Shown here: one piece after another, positions 2,197 to 51,962 of the stretch | How the letters are laid out: each line of letters starts with the position of its first letter | Position numbering within the stretch: the stretch's first letter is position 1 | Assembly: GCA_035531395.1 (NCBI GenBank) | Contig: DATKTA010000035.1 | Span: 72,736 to 136,735, forward strand | Origin: Bacteroidales bacterium | GTDB taxonomy: Bacteria; Bacteroidota; Bacteroidia; Bacteroidales; VadinHA17 | Length of the DNA: 64,000 nucleotides | Direction of reading: 5' to 3' | Program-made: the position numbers and the translations under genes | The notes under the pieces: model-generated | What the model was told of the DNA's origin: nothing | Seen by the model: the letters and a program-made list of their open reading frames with translations, nothing else | Databases searched by the model: none

Positions 2197-2252
2197 GGTT
2201 ATTATTATTACTTTCTGAAATTATATTGGTTAATAACTAAATCAAAGAAATA

Positions 2253-3179
2253 ATGAATAATAGTGAGCAAAATTCAGGAAGGAGGGAATTCATCTCAAGG
2301 ATTTCCATGGTAGCAGCATTAGGTCTCATTAGCTCGAAGGGCATCAGGGCTTCAGTTCCGGAGGAACAGACTGTGTCAATGCCGGAAATAAATCTGGGCC
2401 CTCACAGGATCAGCAGGCTATTATGTGGCTCGAATCCTTTTCTCGGATATTCATATCTGGGCCAGCATACCGATAAACAGATGAAAGAATATTATACCAC
2501 AGAAAGAGCAGCAGAATTACTTCTCAAATGTGAACAGGCAGGTATAACGGCACACCAGTCATCATCAAGATCTGACTATATGAAGATCCTGAGGGAGAGG
2601 GGATCAAAAATTAAAATAATAACTCTGCAATCAGACAAGAAAGATATCAGCTCGGCTATTGAAAATGTCGATCCAATCGGGCTGGTTCATCATGGCGGGG
2701 TGACTGATCGCCTGTTTGCAGAAGGAAAATCCGAAATTGTACACGACTATGTAAAAAAGGTGAAAGATCAGGGAATTCTTGCCGGTGTTTCTGCTCATAA
2801 TCCGGATGTTATAAAAGAAATAGCTGATAAAGGGTGGGGGGTTGATTTCTTCATGACATGTTTTTATTTTCTGACCCGCAAAATGGATAAACCAGAAACT
2901 TTACCATCTCTTCCTGTCGGCAGTTACCAGTTCATGAGAGATGATCCGAAAATTATGACTGAAGTGATAAGGCAGGTAAAACAACCCTGCCTCGGATTTA
3001 AAATACTTGGTGCAGGCAGACTGTGTTCTAACCAGAAAGATGTCATGGCGGCTTTCAAATTTGCATTTGAGAATATAAAACCAACAGATGGAGTTATTGT
3101 TGGAATGTTCCCCTGGTTTTTCGATGAAGTCACTGCAAATTCTCAATATACAAGAGAACTCAGGGGCATCCGAATTTAA
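2253..3179 (+). CDS. Hypothetical exported protein with twin-arginine signal
   Basis: 308-aa ORF with GRREFISRISMVAALGL, a Tat-like signal. No catalytic motif recognised. It lies inside the glycan-utilisation gene block. Confidence 0.5.
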   Translation: MNNSEQNSGRREFISRISMVAALGLISSKGIRASVPEEQTVSMPEINLGPHRISRLLCGSNPFLGYSYLGQHTDKQMKEYYTTERAAELLLKCEQAGITAHQSSSRSDYMKILRERGSKIKIITLQSDKKDISSAIENVDPIGLVHHGGVTDRLFAEGKSEIVHDYVKKVKDQGILAGVSAHNPDVIKEIADKGWGVDFFMTCFYFLTRKMDKPETLPSLPVGSYQFMRDDPKIMTEVIRQVKQPCLGFKILGAGRLCSNQKDVMAAFKFAFENIKPTDGVIVGMFPWFFDEVTANSQYTRELRGIRI

Positions 3180-4308: not shown

Positions 4309-5445
4309 ATGAAAAATCAGAGCAAAGCAATCAGGCATTGTTTGACATATTTGCTGCTAAGTCTGATTACAACAGTTATTTATGGGCAGAATATAATAAC
4401 TCCTGATAGTGTCTGGCAGGAACCATGGTATGGTGTGCCGGAGTATTATACAAAATGGAATTATCCTGATTATCAGATACCAGGATCACTTTCGAAATGG
4501 AATGATGAAAGGATAAAAATAAAGGAGACCCTTCAGAGTCTCCTTGGTGATATTCCAAAGCGCCCTGAGTCATTAAAAGTCAAGACAATATACCGGGAGC
4601 AGAAGAATGGTTATATTCTTGAGAAGTTTATAATCGACAATGGCATTGATTCATGGATTCCCGCATATCTAGCAATCCCTTCAAATGTAAAAGGTGAAGT
4701 GCCTGTCATCCTTGGTATGCATGGCCATAGCAGCAGCAAGGAGAATATATTTGGATATGATTCGAATACAGCACAGGATGTGCTTGCTCTTCTTATATCC
4801 AATGGTTATGCAGTAATGGCTATCGATAGTTATTTTAATGGGGAACGCCGCGGACAGGGTCCTGCAGGGGAGATTGAACGACAGAGTAATGGATCTGACC
4901 AGGAATTGTCACAGTTCAAGCTGAACCTGTGGTATGGCCGTTCATTATGGGGAATGCAACTACGTGATGAGCAGATCGCCATTGATTACCTTATGAGTCG
5001 CCCGGAAATAGATGGTAAAAGGATAGGAGTGGAGGGAATGAGCATGGGCAGCACACGTGCCTGGTGGGTTGCTGCCATTGACGACAGGGTAAAAGCAGTT
5101 GTTGGTGTAGCCTGTTTTACCAGATACAAAGAACTTATTGAACAGAGGCAGCTTAAGGCTCATGGCATCTATTATTTTGTTCCTGGCATCCTGAATCATT
5201 TTGATACTGAGGCTATTATGGGACTTATTGCTCCCAGGCCATTCCTGGTTCTGACGGGTGACAGTGATGCCGGATCTCCTTTATCCGGGATGCTTGTTCT
5301 TGAAAATAAGCTTAATAGTCTTTATTCACTTTATAAAAAGAATGAAAATTTCAGAAGCATAATCTACCGGAATACAGGTCATGTATATACTGATGAAATG
5401 AAGATTGAGATGCTTGACTGGTTCAATAAGTACCTTAAGAACTAA
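4309..5445 (+). CDS. Alpha/beta hydrolase (acetyl-xylan-esterase / dienelactone-hydrolase-like)
   Basis: Signal peptide. GMSMGS is a GxSxG nucleophile elbow, with a late HV(Y) histidine region. Sits in a carbohydrate gene context. Confidence 0.6.
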   Translation: MKNQSKAIRHCLTYLLLSLITTVIYGQNIITPDSVWQEPWYGVPEYYTKWNYPDYQIPGSLSKWNDERIKIKETLQSLLGDIPKRPESLKVKTIYREQKNGYILEKFIIDNGIDSWIPAYLAIPSNVKGEVPVILGMHGHSSSKENIFGYDSNTAQDVLALLISNGYAVMAIDSYFNGERRGQGPAGEIERQSNGSDQELSQFKLNLWYGRSLWGMQLRDEQIAIDYLMSRPEIDGKRIGVEGMSMGSTRAWWVAAIDDRVKAVVGVACFTRYKELIEQRQLKAHGIYYFVPGILNHFDTEAIMGLIAPRPFLVLTGDSDAGSPLSGMLVLENKLNSLYSLYKKNENFRSIIYRNTGHVYTDEMKIEMLDWFNKYLKN

Positions 5446-5465
5446 AATTTTTATATTTTAAGATA

Positions 5466-6572
5466 TTAAATATCAAAATGATGCAGATATTCTTTAAGGT
5501 CCCATGTATTACATAATCCCCTGAATTCTTCAAGCAGCTGATCGTTGAAAGGTACCCCTTTATCCTTGCGTTCCATCCATGTGTAATATTCTTTTTCACC
5601 TGCAGTAAATATCCTGTCCTGTCCGGGCATCTTCTTCGAAGCTCTTAGTTCACGAAGAATATCTCCTGTGGTCTTTTTAAAATCAGCTGGTTCGGTAAAT
5701 GCACTTATGTCGAATGCTATAAAGAAGTGTCCGATAGGATAGGGAACCTTTTTTCCATCCTTTATACCAAGCAGCATTTTCATAAAAGCACCCTGCTGTA
5801 GAGCAGCAGAAAGTATCTCAACTACAGTGGCATACCCATACCCTTTGTATCCTGCTGTCTCTTCCCCAACGCCTCCAAGAGGAGTTAGCGCAGCCTTACC
5901 CGATATAAGATCCTTAAGCACTTCAGCTGAATTTGTCTTACTCTCTCCATTTTCGTCAATAACCCATCCTTTTGGAAGATCTTTTCCCTCACGCGCATAA
6001 AGTTCCACTTTCCCTCTCTGGGTTATAGAGGTAGCACAGTCGAGAAGGAAAGGAAATGGCTCATCACTTGGTATCCCAAAAGTCATAGGATTTGTCCCCA
6101 GCATATTTTCAATGCCAAACGTTGGTGCAATGGAAGGTCTTGCATTTGTACCTGTAATCCCTATTATGTTATCTTTCACTGCCATCAGCGGATAATAGCC
6201 TGCAAAACCATAATGAGTTGAATTTCTTACAACTACCATACCCATTCCAAATTTTTTTGCCTTAGCAATGGCCAGTTTCATCGAGTTAAAACCTATTACA
6301 TGTCCCATCCCGTTATGACCATCAATCACAGCTGTGGTTGGACCCTCTTTTACAATCTCATATTCTGTTACCGGATTCAGTATACCATCCTTAATGCGGT
6401 CGAGATATATAGGTTTCAGCCTGTTGACCCCATGCGAATCAAAGCCCAGCTTATCAGCCTGTATTAAAACATCACATACAATTATGGCATCTGACTCAGG
6501 TATTCCTGCTTTTACCATCACAGCCACCATAAATTTCTCAATAATCTCAAAAGGAATAGCTTTATTACTCAT
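5466..6572 (-). CDS. Ldh_2 family malate/L-lactate/sulfolactate-type dehydrogenase
   Basis: 368 aa. DSHGVNRL and NSTHYGFAGYY motifs are characteristic of the Ldh_2 family. Confidence 0.75.
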   Translation of the reverse strand: MSNKAIPFEIIEKFMVAVMVKAGIPESDAIIVCDVLIQADKLGFDSHGVNRLKPIYLDRIKDGILNPVTEYEIVKEGPTTAVIDGHNGMGHVIGFNSMKLAIAKAKKFGMGMVVVRNSTHYGFAGYYPLMAVKDNIIGITGTNARPSIAPTFGIENMLGTNPMTFGIPSDEPFPFLLDCATSITQRGKVELYAREGKDLPKGWVIDENGESKTNSAEVLKDLISGKAALTPLGGVGEETAGYKGYGYATVVEILSAALQQGAFMKMLLGIKDGKKVPYPIGHFFIAFDISAFTEPADFKKTTGDILRELRASKKMPGQDRIFTAGEKEYYTWMERKDKGVPFNDQLLEEFRGLCNTWDLKEYLHHFDI

Positions 6573-6593
6573 AACACTTCTTTCTTTGGTTAA

Positions 6594-7238
6594 TTATTTA
6601 TCCATTAAATCAATACAATTTACATTGAAAACCATACCTGCCTCCTCGAGTCCAAGTTTTCTCGCTTTTTGAAGATCCAGACATCCACCTTCTTTGTCTC
6701 CTGTATCTATCTTTATTATGCCACTCCAATAAAACGCCTGGCTCTTTTGTAATCTGGTACTGTATATCGAGTTGGTCACCTGCTCAAAATCAGTCAGAGC
6801 GCCGTTAAAATCTCTTAGCTGATGTTTTGCCTGTCCCCTTACCAGGTAGTATTTTTCATTATCATTTCCTCCACTGATTGCTCTGGTAAAATCATTAACT
6901 GCGCCCTTGTAATCTCTTATACTGAATTCAGCCCAACCTCTTCTTCCATAAGTATTAAAATCATTAGGATTTATCTCCAGTGCTTTATTATAATCTTCAA
7001 TAGCTCCCCTGAAGTCATTAATATAGTACTTTGCCACTCCTCTGTTTTCATATGCCTCAAGAAAGGCTGGATTAAGCCTGATTGCCTCAGACAAATCAAT
7101 TATTGCTTCGGGATAATTTCTATTAGAAATCTTTTCTGTTCCGCTATAGAAATACCGCTTAGCCCTTATACCAGGAGTCTGACTATTTGCCGAAAAAAAT
7201 AATGACAACAACAACACCGCAATTGCAAGTTGTTTCAT
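6594..7238 (-). CDS. TPR-repeat secreted protein
   Basis: Signal peptide followed by repeated AxxxYxxAIxLNP-type TPR units. Confidence 0.8.
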   Translation of the reverse strand: MKQLAIAVLLLSLFFSANSQTPGIRAKRYFYSGTEKISNRNYPEAIIDLSEAIRLNPAFLEAYENRGVAKYYINDFRGAIEDYNKALEINPNDFNTYGRRGWAEFSIRDYKGAVNDFTRAISGGNDNEKYYLVRGQAKHQLRDFNGALTDFEQVTNSIYSTRLQKSQAFYWSGIIKIDTGDKEGGCLDLQKARKLGLEEAGMVFNVNCIDLMDK

Positions 7239-7301
7239 GTAAATTTAAATGCTGATTATCAATAATATATCTTTACTGATTCAGTTTGTTGCCAGATTTT
7301 T

Positions 7302-7733
7302 TTATTGTTTTTTATAAACACTCATGTAGTCTGTTCTCAGCAGATGTCCGTCTGAGGATCCCTCTATCGCCCATTTAATGCTAAGATCAGTTTCATTTAC
7401 TGTAAATGCTGTGTTAACAATTGTGCCGTTGCTCCCGGTCATTATAAGAAGATCACCTTCAACTTTCCAGTATAACTCATCTGAAATTTTCCCATCTAAA
7501 TACTTCTTTGCAGTTCCGTTATTATATATTTCCATAACGAGATATCCCGGTTCATATGTCCTGGTAGATTCATTTTGTTTCACATTATCGTAATAGTTTA
7601 TAGTTGTTGTTGAAACCTGATCCCAAACACCAACTAAAAGGGTTGTTGAATCAATTGGATCTTTTTCACAACCTGTGTTTGAAACAATAATAACTGAAAT
7701 CAAAATGATAATAAATGAATAGCTCTTCTTCAT
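7302..7733 (-). CDS. Small lipoprotein (lipocalin-like), function unknown
   Basis: Signal peptide with a lipobox-like SNTGC and a beta-rich sequence. No motif assigned. Confidence 0.55.
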   Translation of the reverse strand: MKKSYSFIIILISVIIVSNTGCEKDPIDSTTLLVGVWDQVSTTTINYYDNVKQNESTRTYEPGYLVMEIYNNGTAKKYLDGKISDELYWKVEGDLLIMTGSNGTIVNTAFTVNETDLSIKWAIEGSSDGHLLRTDYMSVYKKQ

Positions 7734-7802
7734 ATGACCTGATTTGTTTCTTCAAAAATACGAAAAAGAATTACTTCCTTCTTAAATCTTCTTCCTTTGT
7801 AT

Positions 7803-9206
7803 CTACTTTCCGATACAGAAATTCTTAAATATATTTCCCAGAATCTCATCTGATGTTATGACTCCTGTGATCTCCCCAAGATAATGTATTGCCTGACGAA
7901 TATCGGTAGCAATCAGATCGTCTGGTATTTTATTTTCAAGACCTTCAAGCACGCGTTCAAGACTTAATGAAACATTCCGCAATGCTTCATAATGCCTTAT
8001 ATTTGTGACTATTACGCTATCAGAACTTATCTTTTCCTTAACGACTGTTTCTATGAGCTTTTTTCTGAGATCTTCAAGACCTGTTTTTTCCTTTGCAGAA
8101 ATAAATAAAAGATCTTCATCAGGTGTTAAATCTATTCTGGCCGATAGCTGTTGCTGCTTAGCAGCATCTGAGGTGTCAGCCTTATTGACAAGAATTATCA
8201 ATTTCTTATCAGATTCTTTAATCTTGTCCTTTACAGATTTGATTCTCAGATTAATCTGTTCAGGAGTATCTGACACTTCATCAATCAGAAGAACAACAGA
8301 TGCCTGGGAAATCTTTTCAAAGGTTTTCTTAATTCCAAGTGATTCAATTACATCTGTTGTATCACGTAAACCGGCAGTGTCGATAAATCTGAACTCCAGT
8401 CCCTCAATTACAATTGTATCTTCTATGGTATCTCTGGTCGTCCCCGGAATATCTGATACAATTGCCTTATCCTCCATGAGAAGGGCATTCAGTAAGGTTG
8501 ACTTACCGGAATTTGGTTTTCCCACAATTACAACCGGAATACCATTCCTAACAGCATTACCTAAGCTGAATGACTCTGACAAGTTGTCCGCCAGGCCTTT
8601 AACTCTGATAATAATCTCCTTTAATTGCTTCCTGTCTGCAAATTCTACATCTTCTTCGCCGAAATCCAGCTCAAGTTCAATCAGTGAAGCAAAATTGAGC
8701 AGTTCAGATCTCAGCCTGGCAATCTCGGCAGAAAATCCACCCCGCATCTGATTTATTGAAACTCTGTGAGCTAATCGTGAAGAAGAGGCAATAACATCAG
8801 CAACCGCCTCTGCCTGTGACAGATCAAGCCGGCCATTCATGAAGGCTCTCTGTGTAAACTCACCAGGTAAAGCCAGCAATGCTCCATTTTGTGTCAATAG
8901 TTCAAGTATCTTACCAACTATATAAGGAGAAGCATGGCAAGATATCTCAACTGAGTTTTCCCCTGTATATGAATTAGGCGATCTGAATATACTCACCAGT
9001 ACCTCATCAATTACTTCACCTTCAGATCGAACCTCTCCGAACACAATCGTAAACCCCTTACTTACAATAAGGTTAACAGTTTTATCTAAAGGAAAGAAAA
9101 ACTTTGAGACAATGTTCAGAGCATCCTGACCACTTACCCTAATAATTGAAATTGCCCCTCCTGCTCCGGTAGCAGGAGCACATATTGTCTCTTCCGACCT
9201 GATCAT
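7803..9206 (-). CDS. mnmE: tRNA uridine-5-carboxymethylaminomethyl modification GTPase MnmE
   Basis: G-domain GKPNSGKSTLLN and DTAG motifs, plus the hallmark C-terminal CIGK. Start trimmed to the ATG at 9206 (MIRSEETICAPAT), matching the usual MnmE N-terminus. Confidence 0.92.
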   Translation of the reverse strand: MIRSEETICAPATGAGGAISIIRVSGQDALNIVSKFFFPLDKTVNLIVSKGFTIVFGEVRSEGEVIDEVLVSIFRSPNSYTGENSVEISCHASPYIVGKILELLTQNGALLALPGEFTQRAFMNGRLDLSQAEAVADVIASSSRLAHRVSINQMRGGFSAEIARLRSELLNFASLIELELDFGEEDVEFADRKQLKEIIIRVKGLADNLSESFSLGNAVRNGIPVVIVGKPNSGKSTLLNALLMEDKAIVSDIPGTTRDTIEDTIVIEGLEFRFIDTAGLRDTTDVIESLGIKKTFEKISQASVVLLIDEVSDTPEQINLRIKSVKDKIKESDKKLIILVNKADTSDAAKQQQLSARIDLTPDEDLLFISAKEKTGLEDLRKKLIETVVKEKISSDSVIVTNIRHYEALRNVSLSLERVLEGLENKIPDDLIATDIRQAIHYLGEITGVITSDEILGNIFKNFCIGK

Positions 9207-9377: not shown

Positions 9378-9436
9378 CCTGAACCCTGAGCCCTGACCCT
9401 GAGCCCTGAGCCCTGAGCCCTGAGCCCTGAGTTCAG
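9378..9436. repeat. Heptanucleotide microsatellite (CCCTGAG)n, about 7 units
   Basis: Read directly: cctgaa ccctgag ccctga ccctgag x5. Lies in the gap between the LolA-like gene 3' end and the mnmE 5' end. Confidence 0.95.
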
Positions 9437-15301: not shown

Positions 15302-16180
15302 ATGAGCGTTCTTCTAAACAAAGATTCAAAAGTTATTGTACAGGGCTTTACCGGTAGCGAAGGTACATTTCATGCAACACAGATGATTGAATACGGAACT
15401 AATGTTGTAGGAGGAGTTACTCCGGGAAAAGGAGGCCAGAAGCATCTTGATCTGCCAGTCTTCAACACTGTAAGAGAAGCTGTTGAGGAAACAGGTGCTG
15501 ATGTTTCAGTAATCTTTGTACCACCGGCCTTCGCTGCTGATGCAATGCTTGAAGCTGCTGATGCCGGAATAATGCTCATTGTAACAATAACTGAAGGCAT
15601 TCCTGTATCAGATATGATTCTTGTTAAAAACCACATTAAATCAAAAAAATGTCGCCTGATAGGCCCTAACTGTCCTGGTGTTATAACTCCCGGAGAGGCA
15701 AAGGTTGGAATAATGCCGGGTTTTATACATAAAAAAGGTTCTGTGGGAATAATTTCACGATCAGGTACACTTACATATGAAGCTGTGGATCAGGTTACCA
15801 AGATGGGATTGGGGCAGTCAACCTGCATCGGTATCGGAGGAGATCCAATTGTAGGCACAACTACACTTGATGCAGTTAAACTCATGATGGAAGATGATGA
15901 AACGAAAGCAATTGTTGTTATAGGTGAAATCGGCGGAACAATGGAAACAGAAGCTGCTGAATGGATCAGGGAAAACGGGACAAAACCGGTTATTGGCTTT
16001 ATTGCCGGACAGACTGCACCTAAGGGTAGAAAAATGGGACATGCAGGTGCAATAATAGGAGGTAAGAATGATACAGCCAGCGCCAAGATGGAGATTATGA
16101 AGGAGTGTGGAATAAATGTGGTTCAATCACCTGCTGATATTGGTAGCACAGTCTTTAATGCTCTTAAGGAAAGGCAGTAA
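15302..16180 (+). CDS. sucD: Succinyl-CoA synthetase alpha subunit
   Basis: N-terminus [23 protein letters not shown] and the phospho-His region MGHAGAII. No sucC is adjacent. Confidence 0.92.
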
Positions 16181-16266
16181 AGGCTGTAAAGGCCATAGAG
16201 GCTGCAGGTTATGAAGTAAAATAGTCTCTAAAGCATTTAAAGCCTCTAAAGCATTTAAAGCTTTTT
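16171..16266 (+). terminator. Long imperfect hairpin with tandem 9-nt word arms plus T-run (sucD terminator candidate)
   Basis: 5' arm is aaaggctgt/aaaggccat/agaggctgc. 3' arm is an 18-mer (ctctaaagcatttaaagc) x2 followed by ttttt. tagaggct pairs with agcctcta, with further imperfect pairing beyond. Confidence 0.55.
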
Positions 16267-18425: not shown

Positions 18426-18498
18426 GCCTCCTTAGCTCAGCCGGTAGAGCAGCTCATTCGTAATGAGCAGGTCGTGGGTTCGAGTCCCATTGGAGGCT
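18426..18498 (+). tRNA. tRNA-Thr (anticodon CGU)
   Basis: Hand-folded cloverleaf: acceptor GCCTCCT/TGGAGGC (one T-T mismatch at 7:66), D arm GCTC..GAGC, anticodon loop TTCGTAA, T arm GTGGG TTCGAGT CCCAT. Confidence 0.85.
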
Positions 18499-18505
18499 CT
18501 CTTAA

Positions 18506-18603
18506 TTCGCTTTGCGGATTGACGATTGCAGATTATGGATTTATTAATAAATTTGGCAGACATTATTTATAAATCCGAAATCGGAAATCAAAAATCCGAA
18601 ATT
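18506..18603. repeat. Heptad-periodic imperfect hairpin between the two tRNA genes
   Basis: 5' arm is gcggatt gacgatt gcagatt atggatt (18514-18541). 3' arm is aatccga aatcgga aatcaaa aatccga aatt (18572-18603). The GATT/AATC cores are complementary. Confidence 0.7.
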
Positions 18604-18610
18604 GGTTAAT

Positions 18611-18682
18611 GCGGGAGTAGCTCAGTGGCAGAGCATCAGCTTCCCAAGCTGAGGGTCGCGGGTTCGACCCCCGTTTCCCGCT
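18611..18682 (+). tRNA. tRNA-Gly (anticodon CCC)
   Basis: Hand-folded cloverleaf: acceptor GCGGGAG/TTCCCGC, anticodon loop TTCCCAA, T arm GCGGG TTCGACC CCCGT. Confidence 0.88.
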
Positions 18683-18687
18683 CTTAT

Positions 18688-32443: not shown

Positions 32444-33056
32444 TTCTATTTGACATAATATTAATTATAGGCAAAACGTCCCGCACTCTTAATTATCCCG
32501 AAATTTGCGTTTAGCTCCGCTAATTGACATAATTTCAGATATGAGCCGCAAGGATCATATCGGTACCGAAATTATGTCAAAGCAAATTTCTTCCTTCTAT
32601 ATCGGCAACGATTTTATGTCAAAGGAATTTGCGGTTTACAGAGAAAGTAATTTTCTACAACGCCCTTCTGCCTCTTTTGCAGCGATAATTAATACTATAT
32701 CAAATAGAATTGGCGACCGGCATCCCATCTTCGCCAAGGCTACGATGGACAAGACAGGCTTCCGGCAACTGGCTTTAATTCATCCAGAATCAATTATTTC
32801 GATCCAGGTAGTATATCTGTTCGGAAAAATGCTGTGGAGGCTGGAGATACTTTATAGGCTGTAAAAGCAATAGCTGGTTGAAAAAGCTGAAAGGTTGAAA
32901 AGTTGAAAGGTTTAAGCGTTATTAAAGTGCAGTACTTAGTTCTTTCCATTCGCATTCTCCACAAAATATTTTGAGCAATTAAGTCCAGCCGTTGAGCCAT
33001 TGTCCCATTGCGCCATTGCGCCTTTAATTTGCTTTAAAACATTATGTCAAATAGAA
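32444..33056. repeat. 613-bp non-coding segment bounded by perfect 16-bp inverted repeats (MITE-like or invertible-segment-like)
   Basis: ttctatttgacataat (32444-32459) is the exact reverse complement of attatgtcaaatagaa (33041-33056). Internal copies of the core occur at 32524-32533 (ttgacataat), 32571-32580 (attatgtcaa) and 32614-32622 (ttatgtcaa). No convincing ORF lies inside. Confidence 0.6.
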
Positions 33057-40453: not shown

Positions 40454-40669
40454 AAGTCATGTAATATGATTAGTTTTTAATCAAAGAACTGACTATAATT
40501 TAAACCTTTTCAAATAAATAGCATCATTGTCAATTGTTTTTTTCTAATTTTATATGAAAACCTGCTTTTATATATATAAATCAGACACCTTAAATCCATT
40601 AACATTAATCTTTATTAAATTTGAAAATGCTCTTTTTCGTATCTCACTTTAATTTTGATTGCCAATAAA

Positions 40670-46128: not shown

Positions 46129-46617
46129 ATGGTTTGCAGGATTATTGAAAATTTTCCTGAGCTTGACATAACTGCAATTAAAATTACTCCGCACTTTCAT
46201 GAAACCACTGATGGTTTGATTGTTATTGATGAAGGAGATGGATATGCTATATACAGTGAGACCAATCCCGGAAGCAATAAAGATTCTTCCCGAATGTTGA
46301 GTTCAGGTGCTGTAAAAGTATATTTTGCAAAAGTCTGGGATGAAAAGCTATTGACTGTATTCAACAAGATAATGAATTACATTGAGGCTGGGAGTCCCGT
46401 AGTCTGTGAATCCCCTGCCCTCCGAAACTATATTGAACCTGGAGCATTTATTTTAATGAATTCAGATTTGCAATATAATAAAAAGAATATAAGCCATTTA
46501 CAAACATTACCTCATTTAATGATAAAACTTGAGGAGCTTGACAATATAGATTCAATATCAATTGGATTTGAAGATGGGAAATGGTTTGTTAAGCCGGAAG
46601 ACAGAAGTCAGAAGTAG
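46129..46617 (+). CDS. MobB-like P-loop protein; annotated ATG probably truncates the N-terminus
   Basis: The in-frame upstream sequence (open from 46036) reads NLLIISGTGNKAGKTS before the ATG. IKITPHFH resembles MobB IKHTHH. Confidence 0.45.
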   Translation: MVCRIIENFPELDITAIKITPHFHETTDGLIVIDEGDGYAIYSETNPGSNKDSSRMLSSGAVKVYFAKVWDEKLLTVFNKIMNYIEAGSPVVCESPALRNYIEPGAFILMNSDLQYNKKNISHLQTLPHLMIKLEELDNIDSISIGFEDGKWFVKPEDRSQK

Positions 46618-46650
46618 ATTAAATCTTCGGTCTTCGGACTTCAGTCTTCC
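46596..46650. terminator. Heptad-word hairpin between convergent genes (bidirectional terminator candidate)
   Basis: 5' arm is gaagaca gaagtca gaagtag. 3' arm is cttcggt cttcgga cttcagt cttcc. ggaagac pairs with gtcttcc at the base. Confidence 0.55.
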
Positions 46651-46652
46651 AG

Positions 46653-47480
46653 CTATTTCTCCTCATCTATATCTGAAATGTCACTTCCAAGCCTGGCCTT
46701 GATACGCTGAAGGTCATGTTTCATTCCAGCTACGGCCTGTATGAGCTGTTTCTCAGGTAAAACAGGGTCCGGCAGCTCGTTACTTATGTAATTAACAAAC
46801 TTCCATATCTCCTTTACCTCATTTATATGAACCTCATATGGTTCATAAATAGGATTAAGTGAATAAAGAACAAGTTTCCCATCCTTTCTCAGGGTATTTT
46901 CAACCACCTTGAAGACAATCCCATCATCAAGAGTAAAGACTATATAAGCTTTTCCGCTTATTATCTCCATCCAGTCCTGCACATATTCACCTGTGACCCA
47001 TGATCCATCCGGTATTGGCAGCATGGAATCGCCCTTGAGCTGGAATGTTCTGTATTTCTTCCTGTCAGACAGGAATGGCAGGGTAAATACCGGCAGTTCT
47101 CCAATATATTCAGGGTCAGCATATCCTGTTGCATAGCCGGCTTTTGCCTTTTCAGGTACCAGCTCGATGTTTTCCCTGTTCTGAGAGTTTACCGTGGTAG
47201 TTAATACTCTCAGATTACTACCTTTTACATAAGCATCATATCCGCGTTCCAGTTCACCAAGCTGACTCTCTGACAGTTTTGAGATATCAAGCTTCAGTAT
47301 TGTATCGATGGATATATTAAAATACCCTGAAAATGAGATAAGTATCTCTATCCCAGGCTGAGCTACACCGTTCTCATAGCCACTTAGCGTTGAACGTTTG
47401 AGGTTAAGGGCAAATGCTACATCATCCTGTGTACGCCCTCTCCTTTTTCTTAGAAATTTTATGTTGGAAGCAAAATACAT
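46653..47480 (-). CDS. LexA-like repressor: XRE-type HTH plus S24 autopeptidase domain
   Basis: N-terminal HTH (RGRTQDDVAFALNLKRSTLSGYENG). C-terminal LKGDSMLP serine motif and a downstream Lys region. Divergent from the polymerase genes. Confidence 0.8.
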   Translation of the reverse strand: MYFASNIKFLRKRRGRTQDDVAFALNLKRSTLSGYENGVAQPGIEILISFSGYFNISIDTILKLDISKLSESQLGELERGYDAYVKGSNLRVLTTTVNSQNRENIELVPEKAKAGYATGYADPEYIGELPVFTLPFLSDRKKYRTFQLKGDSMLPIPDGSWVTGEYVQDWMEIISGKAYIVFTLDDGIVFKVVENTLRKDGKLVLYSLNPIYEPYEVHINEVKEIWKFVNYISNELPDPVLPEKQLIQAVAGMKHDLQRIKARLGSDISDIDEEK

Positions 47481-47491
47481 AATAAAATATT

Positions 47492-47533
47492 TGATTATAT
47501 TGTAATCATTGATTTGATTAATTTCTAATCAAA
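47492..47533. promoter_or_regulatory. Two tandem palindromes TGATTA-N5-TAATCA (candidate operators); the second overlaps a TAnnTTTG-type -7 box on the minus strand
   Basis: tgatta tattg taatca at 47492-47508. tttgatta atttc taatcaaa at 47513-47533. The minus strand reads TACTTTTG at 47537-47530. Confidence 0.5.
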
Positions 47534-47580
47534 AGTAAAATATATAATCTAATTATCCAAGATATTAATGGAAAAAGTTT

Positions 47581-47640
47581 GGAGTGAGCTAAAGTCTGGA
47601 GTACTTAAAGTCACAACAACTTTAGGCACTTTAGGCACTT
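47581..47640 (+). promoter_or_regulatory. Imperfect hairpin module ending 11 nt before the Y-family polymerase start codon
   Basis: ggagtgagctaaagt / ctggagtacttaaagt pairs with ctttaggcact x2 (ctaaagt:actttag plus gagtg:cact). Confidence 0.55.
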
Positions 47641-47651
47641 AAAACTACAAA

Positions 47652-48911
47652 ATGTTTTTAATCGGCAACATAGAACGTTCCATCCTGCATCTCGATCTCG
47701 ACACCTTCTTTGTATCGGTTGAGAGGCTCAGGAACAGCAGGCTCCTCGAAAAGCCGGTGATAATAGGCGGCATGTCGGACCGTGGAGTGGTATCAAGCTG
47801 CAGCTATGAGGCCCGCAAATACGGTGTAAGCTCAGCAATGCCCATGAAACTGGCCCGTAATATGTGTCCTGATGCGATCATAATACGAGGCGATATGGAA
47901 CTTTACAGTAATTACTCAAACATTGTAACAGATATAATAGCTGAAAGATCACCACTTTATGAAAAGTCATCGGTTGATGAGCACTATATCGATCTTACAG
48001 GCATGGATCGTTTCTACGGATGCTACAAATGGTCACATGAGCTGAGGCAGTATATAATAAAAGAGACCGGGCTGCCTATTTCAATAGGATTATCGGTAAA
48101 TAAGACTGTATCGAAAATAGCAACAGGAGAAGCAAAACCGAACGGGGAGATAGAAGTGCAGAAAGAAATAGTCCTCCCCTTTCTCGATCCGCTTTCAATA
48201 AACAAGATCCCGATGATAGGTCAGAAGACTTACCATCTGCTCCGTTCAATGGGAATAGCAAAAATCTACACACTCAGGAATATTCCTCCGGAAATGCTTG
48301 AAAAGCTTATGGGCAAAAATGGTATTGATATATGGAAGAAAGCCAATGGCATTGATTCAACACCTGTTTTCAGCTACTCGGAACAGAAATCAATAAGTAC
48401 AGAGCATACATTTGAGAAGGATACTACCGATATGGCTCGGCTTAACCAGCTGCTTGTAAGCATGATAGAAAAGATCTCATTTGAGATGAGGAAGCAGGAG
48501 AAGCTCACATCGTGCATCACAGTTAAAATAAGATATTCAAATTTTGATACCCACACCCTGCAGAAACGTATACCCTACACATCTTTCGACCATGTGCTTG
48601 CCGATGTTGCCAAGGAGCTCTTCACAAGGCTGTACCAGCGGCGTATGCTCATAAGACTGATCGGGGTCAGGTTCAGCCATTTGGTCAGGGGAGTACAGCA
48701 ACTCGACATGTTTGACGATACCCCTGAAAAGGTAAGTCTCTACCTGGCTATGGATAGTCTGCGGAAGCGTTTCGGGCGAAATGCAGTAGAAAGGGCCTCA
48801 GGTGTGATGACAATAAGAGAAAGGGAGGAGAAAGTGCTTAAACAGCTCGAAAATGCTATCAAAGAACAGAATATGATGGAGGAACGAATAAGAAAGTATG
48901 GAGTGAGCTAA
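47652..48911 (+). CDS. dinB: Y-family DNA polymerase (DinB/Pol IV-like, catalytic residues present)
   Basis: LHLDLDTFFVSVE and SVDEHYIDLTG align to DinB IHVDMDCFFAAVE and SLDEAYLDVT. 419 aa. Confidence 0.85.
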   Translation: MFLIGNIERSILHLDLDTFFVSVERLRNSRLLEKPVIIGGMSDRGVVSSCSYEARKYGVSSAMPMKLARNMCPDAIIIRGDMELYSNYSNIVTDIIAERSPLYEKSSVDEHYIDLTGMDRFYGCYKWSHELRQYIIKETGLPISIGLSVNKTVSKIATGEAKPNGEIEVQKEIVLPFLDPLSINKIPMIGQKTYHLLRSMGIAKIYTLRNIPPEMLEKLMGKNGIDIWKKANGIDSTPVFSYSEQKSISTEHTFEKDTTDMARLNQLLVSMIEKISFEMRKQEKLTSCITVKIRYSNFDTHTLQKRIPYTSFDHVLADVAKELFTRLYQRRMLIRLIGVRFSHLVRGVQQLDMFDDTPEKVSLYLAMDSLRKRFGRNAVERASGVMTIREREEKVLKQLENAIKEQNMMEERIRKYGVS

Positions 48912-49019
48912 AGTGTGGAGTGAGCTAGAGTTAAAAATAATAAGAATAATATGAGAACCAAAACTCTAAGTACTCTAGGCACTTAGGCACTCTAGGCACT
49001 CTAGGCACTCTAGGCACTC
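48900..49019 (+). promoter_or_regulatory. Second copy of the hairpin module, spanning the polymerase stop codon and ending 6 nt before the dnaE2-like start
   Basis: Same 15-nt 5' word ggagtgagctaaagt, then gtggagtgagctagagt. The 3' arm is ctaggcact repeated about 4.5 times. ctagagt pairs with actctag. Confidence 0.55.
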
Positions 49020-49025
49020 AAAACT

Positions 49026-51962
49026 ATGTATTTAAACTGCCATTCATACTACAGCCTTCGCTACGGAACAATGTCTGTTGAACAGCTTGTGCAGAAAGCA
49101 GTTGCCGGATCGGCTGAAACCATTGTGCTTACCGATATCAATAACTCAACAGCCATACCTGACTTTGCCGCAGAATGCAGAAAGAATGGAATAAGACCTG
49201 TTGCCGGTATCGAATTCCGTAATGAAAATGAACTTCTTTACATATGTATTGCGCGCAATAACAATGGATTAAGAGAACTCAATGAATTTCTCTCAGATTC
49301 TAACTTCAGCAAAACACCGGTCCCCTTCCCTGCTCCACGCTTCGATGAAGCCTATACAGTCTATTCACTGAAGAAAATTCCTTCAAGAGAACTATTTGAT
49401 AATGAGAGAATAGGAATAAAAACTAATGAGCTTAACAGGCTTATCTCTATTAATTCCTCATTTATAAGGAACCGCATGGTACTGCTTCATCCGGTAACAT
49501 TTGCAGAGCCAAATGATATATTTATTCACCGCAGCCTGAGGGCTGTTGACAATAATATCCTGCTCAGCCATTTAAAACCCTCACAGCATGCAGGTGAGGA
49601 TGAGTTTTTCAGGAATCCGGAATATTTTGAAAAATTGAAGAAGGAACATCCATGGCTATTTGAAAATACAGGAAAGCTTATTAATGACTGTAATCTTTAC
49701 TTTGACAGTGAAAGTCTCAAAAACAAGAAGTTATACTCCGCCAGCAGATATGACGATAAGTTGCTGCTTGAGAAGCTTGCATGGGACGGAATGACTTACA
49801 GGTACGGTAAAAAAAACTATGAGGCTAAAAAAAGAATTACACATGAACTTGAGATAATTGACAGGCTGGGTTTTTCTGCCTACTTCCTGATTACCTGGGA
49901 TATTGTAAGGTACTCGATGGCCCGGGGTTTTTATCACGTCGGCAGAGGCAGCGGAGCAAATTCTGTTGTTGCTTACTGCCTGAAAATCACCAATGTTGAC
50001 CCTATTGACCTGAACCTTTACTTTGAGCGCTTCATCAACCCCAAACGAAGTAGTCCGCCTGATTTTGACATCGATTATTCATGGAAAGAAAGGGATGAGG
50101 TGATCGATTATATTTTTAAGCGGTATGGTTACAGCCATACTGCGCTTCTCGGCACTATCAATACATTCCGTGGAAAGTCGATAGTAAGGGAACTGGGCAA
50201 GGTACACGGACTTCCAAAGGAAGAGATCGATTCTCTGATCGATAACCCGTCATCAGAAACCAACAGGAATGAAATAACCGAAACCATTTTCTCAACAGGA
50301 CTCAGGATTGCTGACTTTCCAAATATGAGAAGCATTCATGCAGGAGGCATACTTATATCAGAGGAACCGATCACCTGCTATACTGCTCTGGATATGCCGC
50401 CAAAAGGATTCCCCACAACACAGTGGGACATGTACACTGCTGAGGAAATAGGCTTTGAGAAGCTCGATATACTTAGTCAGAGGGGCATTGGCCATATCCG
50501 TGAGAGCACCGAGATAATACTGCAGAACAGGGCTATTGAAGTTGATGTCCATGCCATTCAGAAATTCAAGGAGGACAGTAAAGTAAGGGAATACCTGCGT
50601 AACGGTGAGACCAAGGGATGCTTTTATATAGAGAGCCCGGCAATGAGAGGATTGCTGAAAAAGCTGAAGTGTGACACCTACACTACCCTTGTTGCTGCCA
50701 GCTCGGTCATCAGGCCCGGAGTAGCACGATCCGGGATGATGAAGCAATATATATACAGGTTCCATAATCCCGATAAATTCGAATATATACATCCTGTGAT
50801 GAAAGAACAGCTCGAAGAGACATTCGGCGTAATGGTATACCAGGAGGATGTTCTGAAGGTATGCCATCACTTTGCAGGACTCGATCTGGCTGATGCCGAT
50901 ACGTTAAGGAGAGCCATGAGTGGTAAATACAGGTCTAAACAGGAAATGAAGCGCATAGTTGACAAGTTCTTCTATAACTGCCGTCAGAAGGGATACAGCG
51001 AAGAGGTGACACAGGAGGTATGGCGACAGATCGAATCGTTTGCCGGTTACTCGTTCTCCAAAGCGCACTCAGCATCATATGCTGTTGAGAGCTTCCAGAG
51101 CCTGTACCTCAAGACGCACTTTCCACTGGAATTCATGGTTGCTGTCATCAATAATTTCGGTGGTTTTTACCGTACATGGGTATATGTGCATGAAGCGCGA
51201 AGGTTCGGTGCAAGCATCGAACTCCCATGCGTCAATAAAAGCAAATACAAGACAACTATTTATGGAACAGTTATATACATAGGGTTTATACATATCATGA
51301 GCCTTGAATTCAGCCTTGCACAATCGATCGAGACTATACGTGCCGAGGAAGGGCCTTTCAAAGATCTGAATGATTTTGTAACCAGGGTTGCTCCGGGTCT
51401 TGAACAGTTGATCCTCCTGATAAGAGCAGGTGCTCTCAGGTTCACAGGGAAAAAAAAGTCTGTACTTCTATGGGAGGCTCATATGATGATAAACAAGAAC
51501 AAGACTGAAAACATCAGGCCCCTCTTCTCTCCTCCTGTTAAAAACTTTACACTTCCTGAACTGGTTCAGGGTAAGATGGAAGACGTATATGATGAGATTG
51601 AACTATTTGGTTTCCCTGTTACTGTAAGCTGGTTCGATATGCTTGAAACATCATTCAGGGGCGAGATTACTTCTCAGAAAATGATTGAATCTGTCGGTAA
51701 AACTGTACGTATGGTAGGTCACCTGGTTACAGTCAAATATATTAAAACAGTAAAAAATGACTGGATGAACTTTGGCTGCTTCATTGATGCCGAAGGAAGC
51801 TTCTTTGACACAGTGCATTTTTCAAATTCACTCAAATTATGGCCATTCAAGGGAAGCGGGACATACCTGCTCCTCGGAAAAGTTGTTGAAGATTTTGGTT
51901 TTCCGTCACTCGAGGTTGAAAAAATGGCTAAGCTTCCCATAAAGCCTGACCAGAGATATTAG
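49026..51962 (+). CDS. dnaE2: Pol III alpha-subunit paralog, DnaE2-like error-prone polymerase
   Basis: PHP N-terminus MYLNCHSYYSLRYGT. Polymerase core motifs (PDFDIDY, GFEKLDILSQRG, SFAGYSFSKAHSASYA). 978 aa, shorter than a typical replicative DnaE. Positioned after the Y-family polymerase. Confidence 0.8.
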   Translation: MYLNCHSYYSLRYGTMSVEQLVQKAVAGSAETIVLTDINNSTAIPDFAAECRKNGIRPVAGIEFRNENELLYICIARNNNGLRELNEFLSDSNFSKTPVPFPAPRFDEAYTVYSLKKIPSRELFDNERIGIKTNELNRLISINSSFIRNRMVLLHPVTFAEPNDIFIHRSLRAVDNNILLSHLKPSQHAGEDEFFRNPEYFEKLKKEHPWLFENTGKLINDCNLYFDSESLKNKKLYSASRYDDKLLLEKLAWDGMTYRYGKKNYEAKKRITHELEIIDRLGFSAYFLITWDIVRYSMARGFYHVGRGSGANSVVAYCLKITNVDPIDLNLYFERFINPKRSSPPDFDIDYSWKERDEVIDYIFKRYGYSHTALLGTINTFRGKSIVRELGKVHGLPKEEIDSLIDNPSSETNRNEITETIFSTGLRIADFPNMRSIHAGGILISEEPITCYTALDMPPKGFPTTQWDMYTAEEIGFEKLDILSQRGIGHIRESTEIILQNRAIEVDVHAIQKFKEDSKVREYLRNGETKGCFYIESPAMRGLLKKLKCDTYTTLVAASSVIRPGVARSGMMKQYIYRFHNPDKFEYIHPVMKEQLEETFGVMVYQEDVLKVCHHFAGLDLADADTLRRAMSGKYRSKQEMKRIVDKFFYNCRQKGYSEEVTQEVWRQIESFAGYSFSKAHSASYAVESFQSLYLKTHFPLEFMVAVINNFGGFYRTWVYVHEARRFGASIELPCVNKSKYKTTIYGTVIYIGFIHIMSLEFSLAQSIETIRAEEGPFKDLNDFVTRVAPGLEQLILLIRAGALRFTGKKKSVLLWEAHMMINKNKTENIRPLFSPPVKNFTLPELVQGKMEDVYDEIELFGFPVTVSWFDMLETSFRGEITSQKMIESVGKTVRMVGHLVTVKYIKTVKNDWMNFGCFIDAEGSFFDTVHFSNSLKLWPFKGSGTYLLLGKVVEDFGFPSLEVEKMAKLPIKPDQRY

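Follow-up and report, generated by a model that had tools for sequence, protein, structure and literature searches.

The window (the whole 64-kb stretch of Bacteroidales DNA analyzed here) contains two adjacent polymerase genes and, upstream of them, a divergently transcribed repressor gene. The first codes for a Y-family (DinB-like) DNA polymerase (47652–48911, plus strand; an ORF with Pfam domains IMS and IMS_C), and the second for a DnaE2-like error-prone polymerase III alpha (49026–51962, plus strand; Pfam PHP, DNA_pol3_alpha, finger, and HHH_6 domains). The repressor gene (46653–47480, minus strand; Pfam HTH_3 and Peptidase_S24) is of the non-canonical Bacteroidetes LexA type, a family described previously (PMC8565304). 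Two perfect TGATTA-N5-TAATCA dyads, which belong to neither strand in particular, lie 23 bp apart at 47492–47531 (47492–47508 and 47515–47531), outside the hairpin modules described below. The dyad has five matches in the window against 0.67 expected, and the pair with its 23-bp spacing is found upstream of the polymerase in 76 of 78 species, in the inter-polymerase spacer in 0 of 74, and elsewhere at eight sites per 714 kb searched. The published Bacteroidetes LexA motifs (GGA-N5-TCC, CTAA-N5-TTAG, and TTAC-N5-GTAA; PMC8565304) share with this locus the divergent repressor/error-prone polymerase layout and the dyad-N5-dyad format, although TGATTA-N5-TAATCA is not among them. The pair are likely the operators of the divergent LexA-like repressor and would control transcription of the operon, and we suggest that they be annotated as a 'probable SOS operator'.

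Two hairpin modules of a single family, both on the plus strand, are placed at the polymerase genes. Module 1 (47575–47646), an ORF-less palindromic element recognized from its sequence, its TRF arrays, its fold, and comparison with an empty site, occupies the leader of the Y-family polymerase gene, where it is very probably part of the 5′ UTR, and ends 5 nt upstream of the polymerase ATG (47652). It is composed of a 5′ terminal repeat AAGTTTGGAGTG (47575–47586), a 5′ arm extending to 47611, a 7-nt loop (47612–47618), a 3′ arm of 9-mers (47619–47639), and a degenerate 3′ terminal repeat CACTTAAAACT (47636–47646). Module 2 (48894–49025; recognized from sequence, ORF, TRF, and fold) takes up the spacer that separates the Y-family polymerase gene from the DnaE2 gene and directly adjoins the dnaE2 ATG (49026); its corresponding parts are the 5′ terminal repeat AAGTATGGAGTG (48894–48905), a 5′ arm to 48931, a 31-nt loop (48932–48962), a 9-mer array (48963–49019), and the degenerate 3′ terminal repeat CACTCAAAACT (49015–49025). 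Neither loop contains an ORF. The terminal inverted repeat of the family is 12 nt long, AAGTTTGGAGTG at the 5′ end and its complement CACTCCAAACTT at the 3′ end. In module 2, the polymerase ORF runs through the 5′ terminal repeat and the first arm unit, which provide its 3′ end, including the last codons and the stop (..KYGVS*, TAA at 48909–48911); in other species the ORF ends ..MYGR* and is followed by aagtttggagtg. A search of the 64-kb window revealed no member of the family beyond these two copies.

An earlier note on this DNA had reported a 15-nt word shared by the two modules, and GGAGTGAGCTAAAGT is indeed present at 47581–47595 and at 48900–48914, the second copy spanning the polymerase stop codon as described; a third copy with one mismatch lies at 48917–48931. 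The tandem 9-mer 3′ arms that it described are also real, with 2.4 copies of period 9 at 47619–47640 in module 1; for module 2, however, TRF counts 6.4 copies (48963–49019, degenerate units included) in place of the approximately 4.5 given in the note. Both regions fold better than shuffled controls, module 1 into an imperfect stem of ~26 bp (−21.4 kcal/mol, z −3.2) and module 2 into one of ~37 bp (−35.7 kcal/mol, z −2.3). The modules are genuine fold-back structures situated right at both polymerase start codons.

Other parts of the earlier description have to be corrected or found no confirmation. The A-rich leaders thought to separate each module from its ATG (cacttaaaact and cactcaaaact) are not independent features, because they are degenerate copies of the element's own 3′ terminal inverted repeat CACTCCAAACTT. 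The helix was said to change in a compensatory way between the copies, but the outer 5′ unit of copy 2 is still CTAAAGT, standing opposite ACTCTAG, and an A is left unpaired in the minimum free energy (MFE) structure. We assessed covariation more broadly by pattern scans and arm-swap tests, since variable repeat numbers make alignment for a covariance model unreliable. The A/G state of the 5′ unit and the T/C state of the 3′ unit are uncorrelated among 22 modules (rho 0.21, p 0.34), and swapping arms between modules makes no difference to duplex stability (native −23.4 versus chimeric −23.2 kcal/mol; 73 modules, permutation p 0.40). There is no asymmetry between sense and antisense folding (27 versus 25 loci, p 0.56) and no G-U excess, the equal folding of both strands being what a palindrome at the DNA level would give. 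No match was found in an Rfam scan of 46500–49300 at E ≤ 1.

With one stable stem directly following a stop codon in module 2 and another lying in a leader in module 1, the modules could be taken for an intrinsic terminator or attenuator acting between and ahead of the polymerase genes. We consider this extremely unlikely; a terminator scan identified no plus-strand site, what comes after the AT-rich stems is A-rich sequence instead of a T-run, and module 1 has no upstream co-directional gene. The modules lack a U-tract and are not intrinsic terminators, in line with the earlier note, which argued that copy 1 is not simply a terminator.

For comparison, we used the orthologous positions in loci from 80 related Bacteroidales species, with site 1 defined as a few nucleotides upstream of the Y-family polymerase ATG and site 2 as the junction between the polymerase stop and the dnaE2 start. 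The window's repeat family is present at site 1 in 18 of 76 species and at site 2 in 16 of 72. The remaining species have at site 2 a repeat from one of six or more unrelated families, sequence left unclassified, or no insert at all (empty junction, 7/72); several species lack any element at site 1, and at least seven unrelated hairpin families occur over both sites. In species L080, site 1 is empty and reads '...atattaaaaaaATG' where the window has '...atattaatggaaa[72 nt]acaaaATG'. Direct comparisons of empty and filled junctions (L080, L043, and L026 versus the window) gave no evident target-site duplication, and the L067 junction, 'aagtttgg|cact', is footprint-like. Non-systematic inspection of the species loci brought no transposase to notice. 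The site states are scattered on the polymerase neighbor-joining tree, and no clean history of gain and loss can be read from it.

The arms change length in 9-nt steps, and the family is dispersed over many unrelated intergenic sites. A near-identical contig (L001) has one extra CTCTAGGCA unit in module 2, a 9-nt indel that substantiates the copy-number variation anticipated for the 9-mers, and array length across species ranges from 2 to more than 20 units. The 9-mer array occurs at no fewer than 120 metagenome loci, only one of those listed being this operon, and metagenome contigs contain at least 70 complete modules; those listed are intergenic in 69 of 70 cases, represent all gene-orientation classes, and lie in contigs of 33–63% GC. 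The full cassette described below, used as a query, gave no match in plasmid and phage collections. The earlier note had proposed a conserved, covarying element dedicated to the two polymerases, to be refuted if its words turned up at many unrelated 3′ ends. Essentially this is what we see, the words recurring at many unrelated intergenic sites: among the at least 70 complete metagenome modules listed, just one is this operon. The modules are moreover patchy at the orthologous sites and show no covariation, strand bias, or Rfam match, and the reading of a conserved riboregulator specific to the polymerases does not hold.

Slippage of the 9-mers could in principle act as a contingency switch resembling phase variation, in which stem length, and hence polymerase expression, is tuned within populations. 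The single-unit difference between near-identical contigs and the wide range of array lengths across species are compatible with such a switch, but we regard it as very unlikely, as array length is not known to be linked to expression, variation of the same arrays is also seen at unrelated loci, and slippage shifts no reading frame because the arrays are non-coding. Alternatively, the 9-mers could form a protein-binding array at the DNA level, with iteron- or operator-like units bound by the LexA-like repressor or some other factor that controls the polymerases, in keeping with short units repeated directly and inverted beside a divergent repressor gene and with the equal symmetry of both strands. 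This is scarcely likely: the conserved sequences that are candidate operators differ from the 9-mers, lie upstream, and do not occur in the inter-polymerase spacer; the three published dyads all differ from the 9-mers as well; and the 9-mers are missing from most orthologous sites while being common at unrelated loci. The more specific proposal that the hairpins are LexA operators is ruled out, the conserved dyads lying elsewhere and the published motifs failing to match; the module sequences contain no dyad-N5-dyad LexA-type palindrome. Judged by sequence conservation, the candidate control element of the locus is the upstream TGATTA-N5-TAATCA pair rather than the hairpin modules.

The relatives reveal the family to which the modules belong. 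In ~20 species, the same arms surround a 119-amino acid PF05635 gene at these two sites, and the full-length cassette is ~430–540 nt long, with this single gene (PF05635/TIGR02436, the 23S rRNA intervening-sequence, four-helix-bundle protein, here IVP) lying between inverted arrays of tandem 9-nt units (AGTGnCTAnAGT / ACTnTAGnCACT) and between the terminal inverted repeats of 12 nt (AAGTTTGGAGTG...CACTCCAAACTT). The ORF between identical arms scores E 1.5e-18 against PF05635 and E 7e-25 against TIGR02436. Across the loci of the 80 species, IVP homologues are found at site 1 or site 2 only and on the polymerase strand, and some metagenome contigs have the order IVP-polY-IVP-dnaE2; in the metagenome modules, loops of 350–500 nt contain the IVP gene. 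The copies form site-specific lineages, with the nearest neighbor coming from another genome at the same site in 13 of 14 cases, and have dN/dS values of 0.09–0.10 with dS similar to that of polY. Truncated intermediates also exist, with frameshifted or truncated IVP remnants in four species (L028, L030, L050, and L024). Neither tblastn nor inspection of the module loops uncovered an IVP coding remnant in the window.

Because IVP-bearing cassettes reside at the same sites in ~20 species and truncated intermediates occur, the window modules are most likely gene-less 'solo stems' of this fold-back cassette family, from which the IVP gene has been deleted at both sites. As the modules have no recognizable IVP remnant, we infer the deletion at these particular sites from the relatives, and an already miniature copy may instead have inserted independently at the window sites. 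In related species of this Bacteroidales clade, cassettes reside at two fixed places of the SOS mutagenesis operon, and under the solo-stem reading, gene loss at both places in the window's genome would have left the arms alone. Once transcribed, the arms would pair into the imperfect stem of 26–37 bp, looping out the insertion and bringing its flanks together, which would make an insertion tolerable at both positions. By analogy with rRNA intervening sequences, RNase III would be likely to act on the stem. If polymerase expression is affected at all, this would be a by-product, arising because the stem modestly occludes the start region or because the transcript is cleaved, rather than sequence-specific control. 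For the window the result is deflationary, and the hairpins are best labeled 'repeat-element relics' in annotation.

The closest known counterparts are the intervening sequences (IVS) of 23S rRNA with an S23p/PF05635 ORF found in Coxiella, Leptospira, and Salmonella (PMC4990558); the Coxiella element is selfish, measures 428 nt, carries an S23p ORF, and has a terminal stem of 28 bp that RNase III cleaves (PMC4990558). The full-length cassettes of the relatives resemble these in size and in the gene family of the loop, as well as in the stem of at least 25 bp to which their terminal inverted repeats give rise, and IVS are likewise regarded as selfish insertions tolerated through looping-out. 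They differ in location, with IVS lying in helix 25 or 45 of 23S rRNA and the present family in mRNA, at the polymerase leader and the intercistronic polY-dnaE2 spacer. IVS arms are of unique sequence, whereas here they are tandem 9-mer arrays of variable length, and the PF05635 ORF is carried by relatives with the same arms but is lacking in the window copies.

A purely neutral relic model fails to account for all of these observations, because hairpins of many unrelated families are enriched ~9-fold at both sites. We scored hairpin occupancy with a fold-based detector, ungapped pairing of TRF arrays having failed to detect the polymerase modules, whose arms repeat with periods of 17 nt and 9 nt. 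Tandem-repeat-armed hairpins are present in 26 of 64 regions at site 1 and 33 of 66 at site 2, together 59 of 130, compared with 34 of 419 other intergenic regions of the same loci (odds ratio 9.4, p 5.6e-20). This strong concentration of several hairpin families on two exact positions of the mutagenic-polymerase operon speaks for a cis-regulator selected for structure. In such a regulator, a fold-back RNA, whatever its sequence, would link dnaE2 translation to termination at the upstream polymerase gene, or else occlusion or processing would set the stoichiometry or basal level of the mutagenic polymerases; the modules of the window would in that case be functional yet interchangeable with other repeat families. 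The presence of at least seven unrelated families at the same two sites also favors it, as does the MFE structure of module 2, where the polymerase stop codon sits in the lower stem, 8 bp of helix from the base, and the dnaE2 ATG adjoins the base. The mean unpaired probability of positions −18 to +3 is slightly lower at occupied than at empty junctions (0.46 versus 0.57), but this difference in accessibility is small. The structure is dispensable, because 7 of 72 junctions are empty and several species have no element at site 1; covariation, sense-strand preference, and G-U excess are lacking; and the enrichment could stem from relaxed constraint or insertion preference at a normally repressed operon. 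We regard structural selection as possible but unlikely.

A further possibility, to which we give a small chance, is that the LexA-controlled dinB-dnaE2 operon ancestrally included one or two Avd-like PF05635 genes, with the arrays serving as RNA processing or looping signals and the protein as an accessory of the mutagenic polymerases, much as Avd serves the reverse transcriptase of diversity-generating retroelements (DGRs). Avd, the four-helix-bundle DGR accessory protein, is linked to PF05635 in Pfam (PMC10053308), and the likeness extends to the adjoining mutagenic polymerase; here, however, there is no reverse transcriptase and there are no template or variable repeats, and the window lacks the IVP gene. 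A functional link of IVP to DinB or DnaE2 is speculation. Were it true, the fold-backs would be selected for structure, accounting for the convergence of unrelated hairpin families on both positions, and the window genome would represent a naturally occurring 'gene-less' variant with stems only.

Correia (NEMIS) hairpins are cleaved by RNase III. Together with REP/REPIN (PMC3116915) and MITE-like repeats, they resemble the solo stems in being short, ORF-less, intergenic, multi-copy fold-backs with terminal inverted repeats, often co-transcribed with flanking genes and variably present among relatives, as here. The many copies at unrelated intergenic sites in the metagenome scan are a MITE/REP-like trait of the module family. 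The differences from REP/REPIN and Correia elements are that neither a RAYT/IS transposase partner nor a target-site duplication came to notice in the loci and junctions inspected here, that the partner is a four-helix-bundle protein without known catalytic activity, and that the arms are internally tandem-repetitive. A literature search for a named family of tandem-repeat-armed hairpins, or of IVP cassettes in mRNA, returned related phenomena only. Three aspects, without precedent in the literature searched, are of interest for the study of bacterial repeats and SOS mutagenesis: IVS-type cassettes occur outside rRNA, in an mRNA operon; they have tandem arrays as arms, which can expand; and they most likely decay to solo hairpins. 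The arrays also have the traits of long simple-sequence repeats (units of 5–11 nt, head-to-tail arrangement, and whole-unit polymorphism). In Beggiatoaceae, Cyanobacteria, and some Bacteroidetes, for example, TAACTGA repeats lie a short way upstream of start codons (PMC4679880), and such heptamer-to-nonamer (STRR) arrays are like those described here in their 7–9-nt units, their intergenic placement near a start codon or over an upstream stop, their whole-unit indels, and their patchy phylogenetic distribution. They are described, however, as direct repeats without a complementary array (PMC4679880), whereas this family has a pair of inverted arrays that fold into a hairpin and are associated with a gene cassette.

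The 15-mer GGAGTGAGCTAAAGT occurs at 47581-47595 and 48900-48914, with a third copy, carrying one mismatch, at 48917-48931; the coordinates bear out the earlier note's observation that the second copy overlaps the end of the Y-family polymerase gene, as it includes the TAA at 48909-48911 that ends the ORF 47652-48911. These copies lie in two hairpin modules, module 1 (47575-47646) before the polymerase ATG and module 2 (48894-49025) before that of dnaE2, each of which Tandem Repeats Finder resolves into a 5′ array with a period of 17 nt and a 3′ array with a period of 9 nt (47574-47612 and 47619-47640 in module 1; 48893-48931 and 48963-49019, the latter with 6.4 copies, in module 2). Folding, which the earlier note had suggested as a check, predicts long imperfect stems for both (−21.4 kcal/mol, z −3.2, and −35.7 kcal/mol, z −2.3, respectively). 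In the minimum free energy (MFE) structure of module 2 the polymerase stop codon is in the lower stem, 8 bp of helix from the base, and the dnaE2 ATG adjoins the stem base. The last codons of the window polymerase (..KYGVS*) come from the first arm unit of module 2; in relatives the protein ends ..MYGR*, followed by aagtttggagtg. We refer to this hairpin repeat family as W, and found no member of it elsewhere in the 64-kb window. The feature is therefore real and was well observed, but reading it as a dedicated covarying riboregulator is a mistake: the modules most probably represent ORF-less remnants of a family of tandem-repeat-armed cassettes resembling intervening sequences (IVS), and the supposed A-rich leaders, cacttaaaact and cactcaaaact, are degenerate copies of the W element's 3′ terminal repeat.

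Domain matches identify the Y-family polymerase gene (47652-48911) and a DnaE2-like polymerase gene (49026-51962), both on the plus strand, and a minus-strand gene (46653-47480) coding for an HTH_3 and Peptidase_S24 protein. A divergent repressor and error-prone polymerase layout has been described for Bacteroidetes non-canonical LexA, whose operators are dyad-N5-dyad palindromes, and the window locus has the gene layout of those loci (PMC8565304). The Y-family protein retains the DinB-type catalytic motifs LDLDTFF and SVDEHY and no imuA gene is present, so the cassette is dinB-dnaE2 and not the classical imuA-imuB-dnaE2. Two perfect TGATTA-N5-TAATCA dyads (47492-47508 and 47515-47531) lie upstream of the polymerase gene. 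In the orthologous locus, taken from 80 species-level genomes of uncultured Bacteroidales (polymerase 86-92% identical in protein sequence), the dyad pair is present upstream of the polymerase at a spacing of exactly 23 bp in 76 of the 78 usable loci, and in none of 74 inter-polymerase spacers; dyad sites are uncommon elsewhere (8 in 714 kb). Judged by this sequence conservation, the pair is a real conserved control element of the locus. Because it is kept upstream and never found in the spacer, the hairpin modules can be ruled out as the repressor's operators. The dyad differs from the published Bacteroidetes LexA motifs GGA-N5-TCC, CTAA-N5-TTAG, and TTAC-N5-GTAA. A third perfect site (40467-40483) precedes, by 14 nt, a small gene on the minus strand, annotated Zn_ribbon_2 in the near-identical contig L001, and this gene may be a further regulon member.

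Across all species we compared the ~110 nt before the polymerase ATG (site 1) and the entire polymerase-dnaE2 spacer (site 2). The earlier note had proposed a conserved RNA, but these sites are hypervariable, contrary to what a conserved leader RNA would show. W (AGTGnCTAnAGT / ACTnTAGnCACT) occupies site 1 in 18 of 76 species and site 2 in 16 of 72. The distance from operator to ATG is anywhere between 38 and 905 nt, the spacer measures −10 to at least 539 nt, and the site states are scattered over the polymerase tree. Site 2 also hosts inverted tandem 7-9-mers from five or more further families (for example, GGCGCAAnG/CnTTGCGCC, GGTGCTG/CAGCAnC, and GGCGACG/CTGACGC), and G/C-rich hairpin repeats are likewise found at these positions. 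Empty site-2 junctions (7/72) have spacers of −10 to 19 nt, with the polymerase stop and dnaE2 start codons overlapping or adjoining. At site 1, the empty locus of one related species, L080, reads ...atattaaaaaaATG, and the filled site in the window reads ...atattaatggaaa, then 72 nt, then acaaaATG. The 12-nt spacer of another species, aagtttggcact in L067, is made up of just the initial 8 nt and the final 4 nt of the W element, and looks like a deletion footprint.

Eight species have a site-2 spacer of ~485-540 nt (longer in one locus containing an assembly gap), and between W-type arms these spacers contain an ORF, MENKEFSKKLE..., coding for a 23S rRNA intervening-sequence/four-helix-bundle protein (IVP; PF05635, E 1.5e-18; TIGR02436, E 7e-25). 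Complete elements end in 12-nt terminal inverted repeats, AAGTTTGGAGTG...CACTCCAAACTT. In a tblastn search of the 80 loci, all IVP homologues were at site 1 or site 2 (~10 species each) and shared the strand of the polymerase; close homologues from the protein database are also located in this operon, and L009 and metagenome contigs L202-L204 have the order IVP, Y-family polymerase, IVP, DnaE2. Some copies are frameshifted (L028 and L030) or internally deleted (L050 and L024). The copies group by site, with the nearest neighbour from another genome occupying the same site for 13 of 14, and their dN/dS of 0.09-0.10 indicates purifying selection; the site clustering, together with a dS comparable to the polymerase value, argues that they are old residents of the operon and not recent arrivals. 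Two copies within one genome are just 75% identical. The data show that modules 1 and 2 are W-family members, that they are linked to IVP cassettes resident at these two sites, and that the arms slip in 9-nt steps. Both sites in the window genome are most simply read as places where the IVP gene has been lost and the arms left behind. L055, from a complete MAG chromosome, shows extreme expansion (5165-8705): between the polymerase genes lie three copies or fragments of IVP together with 22 tandem ACTTTAGTC units, and site 1 extends over 905 nt. On contig L208 (1700-3030), a gene of a more distant PF05635 subfamily (2160-2567, minus strand) is flanked by inverted arrays with a tandem unit of ~61 nt, which hints at a general design in which inverted tandem arrays enclose an IVP gene.

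The claim of covariation rested on a compensatory change from ctaaagt:actttag to ctagagt:actctag, which in module 2 is seen in the inner unit but not in the outer one, where the 5′ unit is still CTAAAGT opposite ACTCTAG and the A is unpaired in the MFE structure. More broadly the claim fails: over 22 W modules, the state of the 5′ units (A or G) is uncorrelated with that of the 3′ units (T or C) (rho 0.21, p 0.34), and in 73 modules true arm pairs gain no stability over swapped ones (−23.4 vs −23.2 kcal/mol, permutation p 0.40). Sense and antisense folding do not differ at site 2 (27 vs 25 loci favour sense, p 0.56) or at site 1 (p 0.44), and G-U usage is equal between the strands. The hairpin region has no Rfam match, and the plus strand lacks terminator-like stems ending in a U-tract, in keeping with the earlier view that this is not simply a terminator. 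Between occupied and empty junctions the computed accessibility of the start site shows only a slight difference (0.46 vs 0.57), which does not allow a claim of strong regulation.

Scanning metagenome contigs with an exact pattern of two consecutive 3′ units identified at least 120 loci. Among the matches listed, only one is the orthologous operon and one precedes a distant Y-family polymerase; 69 of 70 distinct complete modules are intergenic, with neighbouring genes in co-directional, convergent, or divergent orientation; the contigs have a GC content of 33-63%, and loops are mostly 7-200 nt, with an IVP gene in those of 350-500 nt. W thus behaves as a generic repeat at many unrelated intergenic sites, the outcome named beforehand as contradicting a dedicated element, though it is not a terminator. 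Plasmid and phage collections gave no match to the W cassette. On the unrelated contig L117 (1489-1540), a W-type 3′ array and terminal repeat (..CACTCCAAACTTCTTC) abut the ATG of a distant Y-family polymerase (33% identity), a possible second, independent link of the repeat to a translesion polymerase. The suspected copy-number variation of the 9-mers was confirmed: the metagenome contig L001, whose polymerase is identical, has one extra CTCTAGGCA unit before dnaE2 and otherwise matches the window over both aligned regions, and array length across species varies from 2 to >20 units.

The closest precedent for the W cassettes would be the 23S rRNA IVS, such as that of Coxiella, which is 428 nt long, contains the S23p ORF, has a 28-bp terminal stem cut by RNase III, and is considered selfish (PMC4990558). 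By analogy, transcribed arms would pair to form a 26-37-bp stem, looping out the insert and juxtaposing its flanks. Since stop and start codons overlap or adjoin in empty junctions, a fold-back insert would be the type of insertion least disturbing to coupled polymerase-dnaE2 expression.

Counting hairpins in which both arms overlap tandem arrays, we found them at site 1 in 26/64 and at site 2 in 33/66, compared with 34/419 other intergenic regions of the same loci (odds ratio 9.4, p 5.6e-20); operator pairs and extensions of site 1 inflate this background count. Several unrelated hairpin families converge on exactly these two positions. Relaxed constraint in an operon that is normally repressed, or an insertion preference, could explain this; selection for structure seems to us an unlikely cause. 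The main interest lies in the cassette family and in this hairpin hotspot within a mutagenesis operon. Elsewhere in the window, a tandem 7-mer-armed hairpin (GAAGTCA.. / ..TCTTCGG; −29.7 kcal/mol, z −6.4) lies between convergent genes at 46597-46649; it has the same design with another unit, and a similar unit fills site 1 in the related species' locus L044. An inverted tandem-heptamer hairpin (GCGGATT GACGATT.. / AAATCCG AAATCGG..; z −3.5) at 18510-18600 is flanked by tRNA-Thr (18426-18499) and tRNA-Gly (18611-18683). An intergenic 9-mer array (16165-16265) overlaps the stop of the ORF at 15302-16180 and folds weakly (z −0.7), and further intergenic tandem arrays are at 9378-9431 (CCTGAGC, 7.9 copies), 32877-32912, and 32988-33022. 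Among these arrays, the 8-mer array GCCATTGC is similar to 3′ arms in the polymerase spacer of other species.
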